From an archaeon (GTDB lineage: Archaea; Iainarchaeota; Iainarchaeia; Iainarchaeales; 0-14-0-20-34-12), in the NCBI GenBank assembly GCA_038046645.1, contig JBBSVU010000002.1, forward strand, positions 34,995 through 79,474: a stretch of 44,480 bases of DNA, given 5' to 3'. Positions 759 through 9,268 of this stretch are shown here, in pieces (the stretch's first letter is position 1; every line of letters begins with the position of its first letter). Position numbers and translations under genes: made by a program. The notes beneath the pieces are model-generated. The model was not told the DNA's origin, searched no databases, and saw only the letters and a list, made by a program, of their open reading frames with translations.

Positions 759-1774
759 TTTTCCAGTTCCCCCAAATTTATCCCTGAAATGCTTGTTTTT
801 CCTATTGCCTCGATCAGCACAAAGTTTATGATATCAGAATCCCTTTTTTTGTCCTTCCTGATTGCATCCATTAATGTTTCTTTTTTCAATTTTGTTTCAG
901 AAAGGCTTGTCGGCAAGCCAATTCTTTTGAATAAGGATTCAATTCTTTGAGAATCCTTTTCTGAAAGCAACCCTCTTTCCTGTGAAATCCTTGATGCAAG
1001 AATTATTCCGATGCTTACGGCTTCTCCGTGTGAAATATCTGAATTCTTCTCAATTGCATGCCCAATAGTATGCCCCAAATTCAGTTTTCTTCTCTCATTT
1101 CTTTCCTTTTCATCAGCCGCAACAATTCTTGATTTCACCAAAAGTGAATCATAGACCGCTTTTTCCAATGCAGTGCGGTGCAATGAAAGTATTCTTTCAA
1201 TATTTTCTTCAATGTATGAAAAAAGAGCCGCATCGCCTATTATGGCGGCCTTTACTATCTCGGCAAGGCCGCACTTTAATTCATTTTTCGGCAATGTTCT
1301 TAATAATTCAAAATCACAGAGAACAAATACTGGTTGATTTATTGTGCCAATAATATTTTTGTAACCTTTGAAATTTACCCCATTCTTGCCGCCAATGCTT
1401 GCGTCTGCCTGTGCAAGTAATGTGCTTGGGACAAACCCAAAATTAATTCCGCGCAAGTATGTTGATGCAGCAAATCCTGTAACATCAAGGACTATGCCTC
1501 CGCCAATCCCGACAACAAATGAATTCCTGTCCAATTCAAGCTCGAGGAATTTATTGTAAAGCATTTCTACAGTCTCAAGCGTTTTGTTTTTCTCATCCGC
1601 ATCAATCTGAATAAATTCTGCCTTTGGCAATAGCCCTTTAATAACCGGAAAAATATTTTTATCAATCACGATTACTGATTTTTTAGTATTAACATATTTT
1701 TCGAGTTGGGTTACTGATTCACCAACAATTACTTCGCTATTGCCGCTTTTTGTATTTATTTCAAGAAGCCTCAT
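746..1774 (-). CDS. aroB: 3-dehydroquinate synthase (canonical AroB)
   Basis: [33 protein letters not shown] and [12 protein letters not shown] motifs. ATGA overlap with the upstream DAHP synthase. Confidence 0.97.
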
Positions 1775-2583
1775 TTTAACTCACCCATAAATGCGCTTAA
1801 TGGCCTAACCTTTTTCATTATTGCAGAAAACTGTTCTGGTGTTAATGTTTGGTCTTTGTCACTTACAGATTCTTCCGGTTTTACGTGTACCTCGAGTATT
1901 AAGCCGTCAGAACCTGAGGCAACTGCTGCTAAACTCATTGATTCTATTAAGCTTAGCTTGCCAGTGCCATGGGAAGGATCCACAATTATTGGCAAATGTG
2001 TCAATTCCTTTATTGCAGGCACAGCACTCAAATCAAGCGTATTCCTTGTGTATGTTTCAAATGACCTTATTCCCCTTTCGCAAAGTATTACATCAGGGTT
2101 GCCTTCATTAAGTATGTACTCTGCGCAGTTCAACCATTCCTCAATTGTTGAATACATGCCTCTTTTCAACAAAATAGGCTTGTTGGATTTCCCTGCCTCT
2201 TTTAACAATGAAAAATTCTGCATATTCCTTGCACCAATCTGCAATACATCCGCATATTCTGAAACCCATGAAACATCCCTTGTGTCTAAAACCTCGGTAA
2301 CAATAGGCAAGCCGGTTTCATCCCTTGCTTTTTCAAGTATCTTTAATCCTTTTAATCCTAACCCTTGGAATGCGTATGGTGATGTCCTTGGTTTAAAGGC
2401 CCCTCCTCGCAACATATCTGCCCCAGCCTCTTTTACTGCATGCGCTGTCTTCAATAATTGCTCTTCACTTTCCACACTGCAAGGCCCAGCTATGACTATA
2501 AAACCCGCTCCAATCTTTACGTCCCTTACCTTTACAATGGTCCTTCCATTCCCATTCAAACCTGCTAATTTAATGTTTTTCAT
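1771..2583 (-). CDS. aroF: DAHP synthase, type I-beta, catalytic barrel only
   Basis: [48 protein letters not shown] and DPSHGTG motifs. 270 aa with no ACT or chorismate mutase appendage. Confidence 0.96.
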
Positions 2584-2670
2584 AATCTCAGCCTTCTTTT
2601 ACATTCCTCCATTTTCATACTCCTTTTTTTACATTACCCTACTTTTATGTTTAAAGTTAAATATCACAAG

Positions 2671-2716
2671 CATCAGAAAAAACACCTTAGAAAAAGATAT
2701 TAGGGTTATTCTGATG
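2671..2716 (-). promoter_or_regulatory. Hairpin directly after the leader stop codon (putative attenuator helix containing oligo-U tracts)
   Basis: mRNA CAUCAGAA (2716-2709) is complementary to UUCUGAUG (2678-2671). U5 (2695-2691) and U6 (2682-2677) tracts lie within the structure. Confidence 0.55.
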
Positions 2717-2718
2717 GC

Positions 2719-2796
2719 TTACCAAAACCCATAGCTAAAGAAATATCCAAAAAAGAAGCCTTTGTCTTTAGCGTTTTTGTTTTGCAATGCCATCAT
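2719..2796 (-). CDS. Putative aromatic amino acid leader peptide, 25 aa, MMALQNKNAKDKGFFFGYFFSYGFW
   Basis: Read directly: ATG ATG GCA TTG CAA AAC AAA AAC GCT AAA GAC AAA GGC TTC TTT TTT GGA TAT TTC TTT AGC TAT GGG TTT TGG TAA. 6 Phe, 2 Tyr and 1 Trp in the last 12 codons. Ends 135 nt upstream of aroF. Confidence 0.8.
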   Translation of the reverse strand: MMALQNKNAKDKGFFFGYFFSYGFW

Positions 2797-2810
2797 AAAA
2801 ATCTTCTTAC

Positions 2811-2841
2811 TATACAAATATGCACATAATATCTTAATAAA
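2811..2841 (-). promoter_or_regulatory. aro operon promoter: TATA-like element (TTTATTAA, ~2841-2834) plus paired TRP-box-like operator TATACA-N4-TGCACA (2811-2826)
   Basis: Two hexamers, each one mismatch from the TrpY consensus TGTACA, 4 bp apart, lying between the TATA element and the leader ATG. The same hexamers occur at the trpE/trpY promoter. Confidence 0.65.
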
Positions 2842-2918
2842 TGCTGCGGTTTATCCTGTTTTTGTGCTGTCCTGTTTTTTATTCTTAGTATTGCTTTGGA
2901 AAAATGGAGTTAATCTTC

Positions 2919-3683
2919 CTATTTGCCCTCGGCCAATTTTTTAATAAATCTTTCCACATTATTTAATGCTTTTTTCTTATCTATTTTTCTTCCTTTAATG
3001 CATTTACCATAAATATCAATAATTTTGCTGCCGACAATAATGCCATCAGCCCCTGTTTTTTCAAATGCTTTTGCTTGATTAGAATTGGAAATGCCAAATC
3101 CCACAAATAATTTTTTATTCCCGGAAATTTTCCTGATTTTTTTCATTAAAGTTAATCCTTCAATGCCTGCCTTCTTCCTTGCGCCAGTTGTTCCTGACAG
3201 CGAAACAACATACGTAAAGAGCCCTGCATTTTTTAATATTTCAAGGCATCTTTCCTTGCTTGTGTTTGGTGCAATAAGGTGAATCAGGCTTATCTGGTGT
3301 TTTTTTGCCAAACTTTCAAATCTTTTATCCTCCCCTAAAGGCAAATCAGCAATTATTAATCCCTTAACTCCAGCATGCTTCATTTTTATGAGAAATTTCC
3401 CGACCCCATAGCAGTAAATAATATTGTAATAAGTCATGAAAACAAGAGGCACACCTAAATTTTCCTCTTTTAACCTTGAACACATTTTAAATATCTTCCC
3501 AATTGTTGTGCCATTTTTCAAAGATCTTGCGGCTGCTTTCTGTATTGTTTTCCCATCAGCAATAGGGTCTGAAAAAGGGATTCCTAATTCTATAATCTCA
3601 GAATAGGGCACTAATGTTTTAACTAAATCAAAAGTGAAATTGAGGTTTGGGTCTCCACAGCAAACATAGGGTATAATTTTCAT
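2919..3683 (-). CDS. trpA: Tryptophan synthase alpha chain
   Basis: [32 protein letters not shown] and ADGIIVGS motifs. Start moved to ATG 3683 (GGAGG RBS, ATGA overlap with trpB). Confidence 0.97.
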
Positions 3684-4864
3684 GTTGTACAACCTCCTGT
3701 TTTTGCAATATTTGAGATATATTCAACATCTTTATCGCCGCGGCCTGAAAGATTTATTAGAATTATATCATCTTTTTTGCAGTTCCTTGAAATTTTTTTA
3801 GCATAAGCAATTGCGTGTGCAGATTCTAGTGCAGGGATTATGCCTTCGGTTTTGGCCATCAAATTGAATGCTTCCAAGGCTTCTCCATCAGTTATAGAAA
3901 CATATTTAGCTCTGCCCATCTTGTGCATAAATGCATGTTCAGGCCCAATAGCTGCATAATCCAAGCCTGCTGATATTGAATGAGTTTCCTTTATTTGGCC
4001 TTCTTTATCCTGAAGAACATAGGTTAAGGAACCATGCAAAATTCCTTTTTTTCCATTGCTTATCCTTGCAGCATGTTTTCCACTCTTTAATCCATAACCC
4101 CCAGCTTCAACACCTATCAATTTTACTTTTTTGTCATTTTTAAACCCTGAAAATATCCCGATAGAATTACTGCCTCCGCCAACACAGGCTATAACATAAT
4201 CAGGCAATTTCCCTTCTTTTTTAAATATTTGTTTCCTTGCCTCTTTTCCGATAACTGATTGGAAAAAGCTCACTATGTTTGGATAGGGATGCGGGCCAAC
4301 AACCGAGCCTATTACATAATGAGTATCTTTATATGTTGCAGCATAATCTCTTAATGCCTCATTTATTGCATCCTTTAAAGTCCCTGAACCAGAATCAACC
4401 TTGATTACATTTGCGCCCATTAACTGCATCCGGTACACATTCATCCTTTGCCTTTCCATATCCTTTGCACCCATAAATACATCGCATTTTAGGCCAAATA
4501 ATGCTGCAGCACACGCAGTAGCAACCCCATGCTGCCCGGCGCCGGTTTCAGCAATAACCCTTTTCTTTCCCATGTGCTTCGCGAGCATAATTTGCCCTAA
4601 GGTATTGTTTATTTTGTGGGCGCCAGTATGCAATAAATCCTCTCTTTTGAAATAAATTTTTGCCTTGCCAAATCTTTTGCTGAGATTTTTTGCATAATAC
4701 AAAGGAGTAGGCCTTCCGGCATAATTGGAAAGGCATTCTCCAAGCTGTGTTTTGAATGCGCCATTTCTTTTTAATTTATTGAAATTTTTTTCCAAATCTT
4801 GCAATATCGGCATTAATAATTCTGGCACATATTGCCCCCCAAATTCACCAAATCTAGCATTCAT
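3680..4864 (-). CDS. trpB: Tryptophan synthase beta chain (TrpB1)
   Basis: [26 protein letters not shown] (PLP lysine), [16 protein letters not shown] and NLSGRGDKD motifs. ATG at 4864. Confidence 0.98.
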
Positions 4865-8645: not shown

Positions 8646-8730
8646 GCCAAAGTAAATCCCTTCCTTTTTCTTCCATAATTTTCACATTCAATTTCTCAAA
8701 TTCAATTTTTGATAAAATATACTATGCGCC

Positions 8731-8766
8731 TGCACATATTTAAACCTTTATGCACAAAAGTATACA
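8731..8766. promoter_or_regulatory. Divergent trpE/trpY promoter with TRP-box-like sites
   Basis: TGCACA at 8731-8736 and 8751-8756 and TATACA at 8761-8766 (10-bp phasing, last pair N4-spaced) flank a TTTAAA element at 8739-8744. Confidence 0.7.
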
Positions 8767-8767
8767 T

Positions 8768-9268
8768 ATGTTAAGGATAATTGAAAAATTTTTTGAAAAT
8801 GCGCGAGGCAGGAAAATTATTGCAACAGAATTCCTGCGCTTGGGCTTTAAGGTAGACCGCAAGGGAAGGGTATTTGCCAAGAATATAGAATTGCAGCCTG
8901 CAAAGATTGCCCGTGCTTTAAATGTTGACAGAAGGGTTGTAATTGAAACTGCAAAGGAAATAGCAGAGGATGAAAAGCTGCTCCAGATTTTTTATAGGCT
9001 AGAGCCAAGGGCTTTTTTGGGGAATGCTGCAAAGGAATTAGGGTTTGATGCAATTGAAATCAGGGCTAACCCAAAAAAGAAAGGGATTGTTTATGCTGTA
9101 ACAAAGATTCTTGCCGAGGAAGGCATTGTGATAAGGCAGATAATCACTGATGACCCAGATTTATTTCCCGACCCTGTGCTTACTATAATCATTGATGGCA
9201 AATTAAACAGCAAAGTGATAAAAAAGCTTAGGGAACTGGATTTTGCGGAAAGCATTTTGATAAAATAA
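8768..9268 (+). CDS. trpY: TrpY-family tryptophan-responsive regulator (HTH plus ACT domain)
   Basis: Divergent from trpE. IARALNVDRRVV HTH and G-I-x(10)-GI-x-IRQ...DP ACT pattern typical of archaeal TrpY. Likely leaderless start at ATG 8768, 23 nt after TTTAAA. Confidence 0.88.
   Translation: MLRIIEKFFENARGRKIIATEFLRLGFKVDRKGRVFAKNIELQPAKIARALNVDRRVVIETAKEIAEDEKLLQIFYRLEPRAFLGNAAKELGFDAIEIRANPKKKGIVYAVTKILAEEGIVIRQIITDDPDLFPDPVLTIIIDGKLNSKVIKKLRELDFAESILIK

Follow-up and report, generated by a model that had tools for sequence, protein, structure and literature searches.

Does a ribosome that is translating a short leader decide, in an archaeon, whether the genes for aromatic amino acid synthesis are transcribed? 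Leader-peptide attenuation is a textbook form of control by coupled transcription and translation, and archaea also couple these two processes, terminating transcription via U tracts and the factor aCPSF1/FttA. The question is raised by a 44,480-nucleotide (nt) stretch of contig JBBSVU010000002.1 (hereafter the window) from an archaeon of the order Iainarchaeales, in which a small open reading frame (ORF) crowded with Phe, Tyr and Trp codons lies upstream of aroF, aroB and aroE. We lean towards reading this region as a ribosome-sensed leader-peptide attenuator for the aroF-aroB-aroE cluster, adapted to archaeal termination. Positions below are those of the window, features lie on the minus strand unless stated otherwise, and RNA is given in the mRNA sense.

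An aromatic-codon leader upstream of aroF

The leader ORF (2719..2796) comprises 25 codons and a stop and encodes MMALQNKNAKDKGFFFGYFFSYGFW, with an in-frame TTG at 2817 as a possible alternative start further upstream. Its stop codon lies 135 nt upstream of aroF-aroB-aroE on the same strand, and its last 12 codons (2722..2757), reading FFF G Y FF S Y G F W, contain 6 Phe, 2 Tyr and 1 Trp. With 9 aromatic residues, the best 12-residue window of the leader is joint top of the 10,848 ATG-started ORFs of 12-60 amino acids (aa) found genome-wide. The two other ORFs of the genome that reach 9/12 are T-rich artefacts, one overlapping a terminator-like T-rich stretch and the other antisense within a gene. 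A second copy of the leader was also sought, and the single extra match (31 nt, 90% identity, L002) was dismissed as chance, being located inside a 300-aa ORF on the opposite strand.

The distribution of such leaders was followed by searching the aroF protein in 61 related genomes, then in 196 genomes of the order and 215 of the phylum, as well as in metagenome contigs (the best 80 of at least 593 matches) and species-representative genomes. Archaeal leaders of the same kind were found at L183 (MSKCFWMTAEAQMYRANRFFFFSFGLAFC), L184 (MAKAFSKTWTGNNFYYLSFGYAFW), L105, a Micrarchaeota metagenome-assembled genome (MAG) (MNNVVMMINTVEANNWNYFFGFYSFSFDY), L189 (MQGNILTLILNNVFSSNSFFSYFFWFC), L187/L188 (MKTVTSKLISVPVLSSFGFFGYYRFR) and L019 (...ATIFFSYYFYG), and among these L183, L184, L187/L188, L189 and L019 belong to genomes of the window's own order. 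The closest bacterial aroF genes, those of Ignavibacteriaceae, Spirochaetia, Syntrophaceae and a deltaproteobacterium, which are 72-76% identical to the window's aroF, likewise have aromatic-rich small ORFs 75-190 nt upstream, and similar ORFs occur in several metagenome loci; examples of these leaders are ...KSFGFGYFYFYYYGNNIMN (L024), ...NNFYFYYFYRYAIL (L108) and ...SGYYYYFWFRGRH (L110). In eight bacterial or metagenome loci (L024, L025, L027, L104, L107, L108, L109 and L110) the leader is followed by a hairpin with a U-run, and TTGACA/TATAAT-like promoter elements, read by eye, precede the bacterial leaders. By their layout, these eight loci are recognizable as ordinary bacterial leader-peptide attenuation.

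Over the 164 of 188 loci covered by the count (24 were not assessable), ORFs with at least 6 aromatic residues in 12 stand upstream of 12/23 short-form and 27/141 long-form aroF genes, the long class including L019 as well as L183, L105 and L189, the last three classed as long solely on account of reading frames that continue open upstream. Aromatic leaders before aroF extend far beyond the two published cases that we found and that are discussed below. Long-form aroF genes preceded by aromatic-rich ORFs also occur in Clostridia, Ruminococcus, Acholeplasmataceae and Acidobacteriota, with long-form examples at L115, L125, L136, L156, L164, L171, L180, L138, L153 and L175. At another locus, on a bacterial-looking metagenome contig of 202 kilobases (L023), the aromatic leader MRKRLIVLFRNIFSSNYFYFWA lies behind a TTGACA-type promoter, and neither a hairpin terminator nor a T-run was found between this leader and aroF; it may represent a terminator-independent variant in a bacterium.

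The gene that the leader precedes, aroF (1771..2583), encodes a type I-beta 3-deoxy-7-phosphoheptulonate (DAHP) synthase of 270 aa. It scores 402.9 bits with TIGR01361, and its match to NF006421 is confined to profile positions 79-334 of 338, from which it follows that the N-terminal regulatory domain, ~66 aa long, is missing; an N-terminal extension of 65-70 aa is present in 17/27 homologous loci of the same phylum. We take the missing domain to be the one that mediates feedback inhibition, and in an enzyme devoid of it the control of expression may be the main regulation. A remnant of the domain was sought upstream by tblastn with 16 homologue pieces against 2541-2960, which returned chance-level matches, the best (E 0.008) spanning 15 residues on the wrong strand.

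The nearest named relatives of this aroF are MAGs labelled Candidatus Micrarchaeota. In an unrooted tree of 69 rows, built by a quick IQ-TREE search with support from the Shimodaira-Hasegawa-like approximate likelihood ratio test (SH-aLRT) only, the window's aroF falls within a 21-row clade (SH-aLRT 99) of 5 archaeal, 7 bacterial and 9 metagenome rows. Members of this clade are 70-80% identical to the window's aroF and bring Micrarchaeota-like archaea together with Spirochaetia, Ignavibacteriaceae and Syntrophaceae (loci L023-L032, L103-L111, L183 and L184), and L187/L188, L189 and L019 are placed outside it, among other archaeal rows. This topology points clearly to transfer of the aro cluster between domains, whose direction and number are not readable from the tree since it is unrooted.

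Upstream of the leader, the sequence has an archaeal appearance. The TATA-like octamer TTTATTAA (2834..2841), 45 nt upstream of the leader ATG, is a putative archaeal promoter of the leader-aroF unit, and a TTTA[AT]3 octamer is located 36-46 nt before the leader ATG in 7/7 archaeal loci, L187 and L188 being near-duplicates; at L019 a similar octamer lies ~31 nt before the leader ATG. Transcription of leader and aroF thus probably starts from a TATA-type promoter near 2841. No Rfam family matched the window at gathering thresholds, Phe_leader and Trp_leader included, and the best sub-threshold match in 2500-2960 (E 0.23, 21.7 bits vs a 100-bit threshold) was weak and unrelated.

Oligo-U tracts and the post-stop helix

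A U5 tract (2691..2695) and a U6 tract (2677..2682) follow the leader stop at ~24-42 nt. T-runs of at least 5 were found 13-48 nt after the leader stop in 6/7 archaeal loci, L183 having only T4. Across the window genome, 174/440 gene 3' flanks have a T-run of at least 5 within 60 nt, with a median first position of 22.5 nt, and the leader thus appears to be trailed, at the usual distance, by the normal transcription stop signal of the organism. The tracts are candidate archaeal oligo-U terminators, for which at least 5 U shortly after the stop suffice in sequence and a hairpin is not needed. The preliminary description of this DNA, made by eye, had already reported the aromatic-codon leader and the U5/U6 tracts behind its stop, both of which stand, and had noted that no classical GC hairpin with a 3' U-run is present. 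A scan agrees, finding 0 hairpin terminators with U-runs in 2300-3200 against 0.5 expected, and 0/7 archaeal loci with one as against the eight bacterial or metagenome loci that have it. The suggestion, in the preliminary description, of a possibly archaeal-specific mechanism is reasonable, since similar leaders of bacteria with a related aroF are followed by classic terminators and those of the archaeal loci are not. After the stop, the T-runs are the best-conserved sequence feature; MAFFT placed the eight post-stop segments by their T-runs, not by helix arms, and yielded no usable structural alignment.

The tracts are enclosed by a helix, designated C, in which CAUCAGAA (2709..2716), starting 5 nt downstream of the first stop-codon base, pairs 8/8 with UUCUGAUG (2671..2678) downstream of the oligo-U loop. 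The U5 tract lies in the loop and the U6 tract runs into the 3' arm, and according to the predicted fold of the post-stop 75 nt the helix may be extended by UAAGC/GCUUG. When the 75 nt from the leader stop codon were folded against 500 dinucleotide shuffles, the window gave z -3.37 (p 0.004), and the related archaeal loci gave z -3.85 (p 0.002, L183), -2.76 (p 0.012, L184), -0.71 (p 0.23, L105), -4.52 (p 0.002, L189), -2.21 (p 0.022, L187), -1.57 (p 0.07, L188) and -2.46 (p 0.022, L019). Over the six lineages other than the window, with L188 left out as a near-copy of L187, Fisher's combined p was 6e-7.

The predicted folds follow a common plan, in which a 5' arm starting 0-11 nt from the first stop base is followed by a loop of ~17-36 nt with T-runs and then by the 3' arm. 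The respective 5' and 3' arms are AAGCCGGCUCAC and GUGGGCUGGCUU at L183, CAUAAAGCA and UGCUUUAUG at L189, ACACAAGGCGC and GCGUCUUGUGU at L187, and GAAGCGGGCAGC and GCUGUCUUGCUUC (bulged) at L019. The arm sequences are unrelated between lineages, and the predictions suggest that helix C is kept in structure, not in sequence, across related archaea. L187 and L188 differ by 4/4 synonymous changes in the leader and by 2 in the 3' arm of helix C, where G-C and G-U replace each other and pairing is kept; their loops are set apart by several substitutions and an indel. The 3' side of the post-stop element also holds an 11-nt string, TTTTCTGATGC, in both the window (2671-2682) and L105, whose aroF proteins are only 77% identical; the L105 copy is without a CATCAGAA partner.

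Given that the 5' arm lies so near the stop codon, the position of the ribosome must decide whether helix C can form. This was modelled with a ribosome footprint extending from the A-site codon 15 nt in the 5' and 12 nt in the 3' direction, a size assumed from general knowledge. At L183, L187, L188 and L189 the modelled probability of helix C is 0.9 or more unless the A site has reached the final 1-3 codons or the stop. For the window, helix C is lost with the A site at the last 2 codons or the stop, reaches ~0.9 with the ribosome on early codons, and is low with the ribosome on codons 12-18 (0.10-0.26) or ribosome-free (0.10). It is hardly populated in the ribosome-free leader of the window because GCCAUCA (2712-2718, just past the leader stop) pairs with UGAUGGC (2791-2797, in the leader start region), closing the whole leader, a complementarity seen in the window genome only. 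At two Spirochaetia-type loci (L024 and L107), a post-stop helix begins 5-6 nt after the first stop base, has a 24-25-nt loop and overlaps the 5' half of the terminator, and the predicted placement of helix C is the same.

The preliminary description had gone further and combined C with four other helices into a mutually exclusive switch, set by ribosome position and linking the leader codons to the U tracts and to the aroF initiation region. All five complementarities are present as it described them: helix A (GCUAAAGA 2772-2765 with UCUUUAGC 2741-2734, a hairpin within the leader ORF spanning 2734..2772) pairs 8/8, helix B (GGGUU 2730-2726 with AACCC 2707-2703) 5/5, helix C 8/8, helix D (the codons at 2760-2751 with AAAAGAAGGC, 2591..2600, 8-17 nt upstream of the aroF ATG) 9/10, and helix E (ACCCUA 2706-2701 with UAGGGU 2641-2636) 6/6. 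Their collective weight as evidence is small. For the 261-nt region 2570-2830 the predicted folding energy is -45.2 kcal/mol, compared with -46.8 +/- 4.5 for shuffles (z +0.35), and 121/200 shuffles fold at least as well; greater stability than in dinucleotide-shuffled controls therefore holds for the 75-nt post-stop segment but not for the region as a whole. A 182-nt stretch contains 3 perfect Watson-Crick stems of at least 8 bp, namely A, C and the core of D, where shuffles average 0.63; 3 are reached by 2.6% of 500 shuffles, and the count is flattered by the fact that the ends of the stretch had been set on helices. In the ribosome-free ensemble of the 251-nt leader, A has a mean pair probability of 0.98, and none of B, C, D (0.010) and E (0.003) exceeds 0.011.

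Comparison between loci was equally selective. Leader-internal folding of the A type was no better than shuffles in 7/7 archaeal loci (z -0.1 to -1.0), so that helix A is real in the window and without comparative support. B-type pairing is sporadic, being nominal in 2/7 loci only, L189 (0.008) and L184 (0.048). Pairing of the D type, between the aromatic codons and the aroF ribosome-binding region, gave p 0.016 against shuffled ribosome-binding regions in the window and was unremarkable in 6/6 other archaeal loci (p 0.28-0.91); the 3' partner of D is probably simply the purine-rich ribosome-binding region. The proposal that the ribosome selects the fold is supported for helix C, which in the footprint model is blocked at the last codons and the stop, and is not supported for the five-helix switch or for the link from the Phe codons to the aroF ribosome-binding site.

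Proposed control of aroF and competing explanations

The control that we propose would proceed as follows. Transcription from the TATA-type promoter near 2841 would yield the short ORF with 9 Phe, Tyr or Trp residues in its last 12 codons, and the polymerase would then reach the U5 and U6 tracts, ordinary terminator signals that must be read through for aroF to be expressed. With charged aromatic tRNAs plentiful, the ribosome would run to the stop codon and cover the 5' arm of helix C, the U-rich RNA would stay open, and transcripts would end at the U tracts. A ribosome stalled earlier, on the aromatic codons, would leave the 5' arm free, helix C would form, and read-through into aroF would be favored, for example by hindering U-tract-dependent aCPSF1/FttA. 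We infer this direction, from starvation to read-through, by analogy with bacterial attenuators. The archaeal element would thereby keep the leader and the ribosome-blockable helix of its bacterial counterparts, with oligo-U tracts replacing the hairpin terminator.

Several lines of evidence argue for an attenuator. The leader is extreme in composition, stands directly before the first gene of the pathway on the right strand, and recurs upstream of related aroF genes; it is flanked in archaea by TATA-like boxes and T-runs, a post-stop helix recurs behind it, and the L187-L188 changes are synonymous or keep pairs. The helix geometry of L024 and L107, the footprint model, the absence of an allosteric domain from aroF, the presence of aCPSF1/FttA in the genome and the archaeal nature of the contig are consistent with the same reading.

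A number of points weigh against it. No such leader was found at the related archaeal aroF loci L103, L185, L186, L190, L020 and L021, and the archaeal examples total seven or eight only. TATA-like octamers also occur between leader and aroF, in the window (TTTAAACA, ~77 nt before the ATG) and at L019, so that aroF may have its own promoter. The 75-nt segment of the folding test was chosen after helix C had been seen in the window, and then applied unchanged elsewhere; 4.6% of 219 other gene 3' flanks in the window genome are equally structured, the most stable of the 440 3' flanks hold tRNA-like cloverleaf folds and repeats, the post-stop fold of L105 is not significant, and L183 has only a U4 tract. 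Helix C occupies an antiterminator-like position but has no terminator hairpin as a competitor, and it would be powerless over intrinsic termination, its 3' arm being transcribed only after the U tracts. The logic therefore requires a step after the U tracts, such as factor-dependent, cleavage-triggered termination by aCPSF1/FttA. A closely coupled ribosome might moreover suppress termination and so reverse the logic, and the transcription start, the 3' ends and the regulatory response are predictions from sequence.

A bolder statement, which we advance tentatively and regard as possible but somewhat doubtful, is that this is the first ribosome-mediated transcription attenuator in Archaea, a bacterial-type aromatic leader that crossed domains and was refitted in Micrarchaeota-like archaea with a TATA promoter, its hairpin terminator replaced by oligo-U within a helix blockable by the terminating ribosome, with the ribosome gating archaeal termination, intrinsic or aCPSF1/FttA-dependent. 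On such a reading, at least seven lineages of the order may have retained the unit. If true, it would make testable whether a ribosome can gate archaeal termination, and would offer a clear case of a cis-regulatory device that crossed the domain boundary and was rebuilt for the machinery of the recipient.

Among the competing explanations, the one that survives best places the effect after transcription: where the ribosome stalls would determine how the mRNA refolds, and thereby how aroF is translated or how stable the message is, one possible route being that helix D frees the ribosome-binding site. The 9/10 complementarity of D, stronger than with shuffled ribosome-binding regions in the window genome, would suit such a switch, as would the ability of UGAUGGC to pair with the 5' arm of helix C, which takes the helix from 0.10 ribosome-free to ~0.9 with the ribosome on early codons. 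The L023 leader, with neither hairpin terminator nor T-run, fits as well, and so does a resemblance to the mycobacterial terminator-independent small-ORF (sORF) attenuators, the accessible text of bioRxiv 10.1101/834739 describing polycysteine leaderless sORFs that attenuate operon expression. We nevertheless consider this explanation unlikely, given that D-type pairing goes unseen in 6/6 other archaeal loci and has an ensemble probability of 0.010, that Phe codons (UUY) are expected by composition to complement a purine-rich ribosome-binding site, and that it is the T-runs that are best conserved in sequence after the stop.

The leader could also be a decaying relic that arrived with an aroF operon exchanged between bacteria and archaea, lost its hairpin terminator and now regulates nothing, the helices being chance. 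The position of aroF in the mixed 21-row clade, the missing classic terminator, a whole-region fold no better than shuffles, and the loss of the leader in some archaeal relatives (L103, L185 and L186) are what a relic would leave behind. A neutral sequence, however, would have been scrambled by now, and the leader is open and aromatic-rich in at least seven archaeal lineages whose aroF is only 53-80% identical to the window's. Archaeal-type TATA-like boxes precede it, the L187/L188 leader differences are 4/4 synonymous, the post-stop helix recurs with different sequences, and the GC content is fully ameliorated, all of which make a relic quite unlikely.

That the ORF instead encodes a small aromatic-rich functional peptide, with its own promoter and oligo-T terminator and with aroF transcribed from a separate downstream promoter, would agree with the TATA-like box before it, the T-runs at the usual terminator distance behind it and the TATA-like octamers between leader and aroF in the window and L019. 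It is very improbable all the same, as the peptide is poorly conserved in sequence beyond its aromatic content and always placed just upstream of aroF, and bacterial ORFs of the same kind are followed by textbook attenuator terminators. Pure chance, by which T-rich intergenic DNA in a 35% GC genome would read as Phe and Tyr codons and give short complementarities, can point to the two artefactual 9/12-aromatic ORFs and to the ~0.6 stems of 8 bp expected in 182 nt, but is scarcely credible for an ORF that is met again in this location across many independent genomes from two domains, and in which Phe, Tyr and Trp codons are interspersed with Gly and Ser codons, unlike a T-run.

Known systems and the gene neighborhood

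The textbook attenuator alternates between a 1:2 helix, a 2:3 helix (antiterminator) and a 3:4 helix (terminator). As in the enterobacterial pheL/pheA and trpL attenuators, which are mentioned in the accessible text of PMC11802643, the window has regulatory codons and a post-stop segment that would be covered by the terminating ribosome and would otherwise pair downstream, in the 2:3 position, where the post-stop helix of L024 and L107 also lies. Unlike them, it has no 3:4 terminator hairpin, and its U tracts lie inside the 2:3-like loop and not after a hairpin. The element thus has, as far as can be read from its layout, the leader side of a ribosome-mediated attenuator and is without the defining terminator hairpin.

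Closer in gene content is aroR of Corynebacterium glutamicum (Neshat et al. 2014), a leader of Phe and Tyr codons before aroF in which, according to the accessible text (PMC11802643), stalling raises expression by classic transcription attenuation. In both cases a short Phe/Tyr-codon leader ORF lies upstream of an operon with a DAHP synthase gene. As far as that text allows comparison, the window differs in its archaeal host, the lack of a hairpin terminator with U-run and its TATA-type-looking promoter, and is known from sequence alone. The second published case, uORFC-13-1 (Brewer et al. 2021), is a Phe-codon upstream ORF (uORF) before aroF in Acholeplasma and environmental sequences for which control of termination was proposed (PMC8632094, accessible text); it has -35/-10 elements, lies immediately upstream of an intrinsic terminator stem and is not reported from archaea in that text. 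The two share a Phe-codon uORF directly upstream of a 3-deoxy-7-phosphoheptulonate synthase gene and, compared by description and not by consensus, are set apart by the -35/-10 elements, the terminator stem and the bacterial or environmental origin of uORFC-13-1. An aromatic uORF, MFQTFAYYYYYQM, was also seen at the Acholeplasmataceae locus L171. In relation to bacterial aroF attenuators generally, the window element appears akin in gene and operon, and it has neither a sigma-70 promoter nor a bacterial host. Leader-peptide attenuation of aroF in bacteria is already known; an archaeal candidate may be what is new.

On the archaeal side, termination by aCPSF1/FttA has been tied to U-rich tracts (PMC7515710 and PMC8716108, in their accessible parts). 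The window shares with this mode of termination the U-rich tracts without a required upstream hairpin, and an aCPSF1/FttA orthologue is present in the genome (858 bits vs a cut-off of 580.2 bits); the cases known from those texts are gene ends, not conditional stops in a 5' leader. Our literature search found no ribosome-gated use of archaeal oligo-U terminators. Nor did it find archaeal leader-peptide or ribosome-mediated attenuation in full-text literature, a search to which most subscription journals were closed and which is not proof of absence. The regulators of archaeal aromatic genes described in the accessible text of PMC6737238, TrpY and Tar/TK0271, are DNA-binding proteins acting at promoters. 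They concern the same pathway in archaea, and a TrpY-family gene is located on the window contig, whereas in the window it is the translating ribosome that would read the signal.

The leader sits between two biosynthetic gene clusters. The minus-strand order is trpE-G-D-C-B-A (8645 to 2919), a gap of 335 nt, and then aroF, aroB (746-1774) and aroE (3-758), the last of which overlaps aroB directly in the window; trpA (2919..3692), the final gene of trpEGDCBA, has a T5 run (2900-2904) after its stop codon. The order trpB-trpA-leader-aroF is also present in L105, L183, L184 and L189, and the order aroF-aroB-(gene)-aroE is common to the window and the bacterial leader-bearing relatives. In most of L023, L024, L105 and L107-L110, the aroB and aroE matches are ~600-700 nt apart, presumably with another gene between them.

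The genome measures 1.17 Mb at 35.5% GC and 89% completeness. Its gene content marks the contig as archaeal, with a TrpY-family regulator gene (8750-9268, plus strand) divergent from trpE across the intergenic region 8646-8749 and, further along, Spt5 (NGN-KOW)-L11-L1-L10 with an L10P insert, a GatE-like protein and an aIF-2B family protein. A chimeric join is unlikely, since GC is uniform over the aro and trp genes (0.36-0.385), contigs from other sequencing runs overlap through the trpA-to-aroF interval, and the trpB-trpA-leader-aroF order is found in four other assemblies. The locus is contained in 16 sequencing runs, all of DNA, the labelled ones being groundwater metagenomes, and contigs from 4 DNA runs are identical across the leader wherever they cover it, which is uninformative on strain variation.

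Two candidate signals in the regulatory regions were rejected. TGTACA, the TrpY-type operator motif known from Methanothermobacter, occurs in neither of the two regulatory regions; TGTGCA is present at 8731-8736, at 8751-8756 and at 2821-2826, between the TATA-like box and the leader ATG, and is common, with 34 occurrences in the window against 26.9 expected. The direct repeat AATGTAAAA before aroF (2597-2605 and 2627-2635, 30 nt apart) is probably chance, 3 being present in the window against 2.8 expected. Outside the window, near 98097 and 48840 of contig C16, a repeated G+C-rich hairpin (GACGCUCCAUGGGCUGAAGCCCAUGGCGUC ... GGGCUUCAGGCGGAAGCC) follows two genes.

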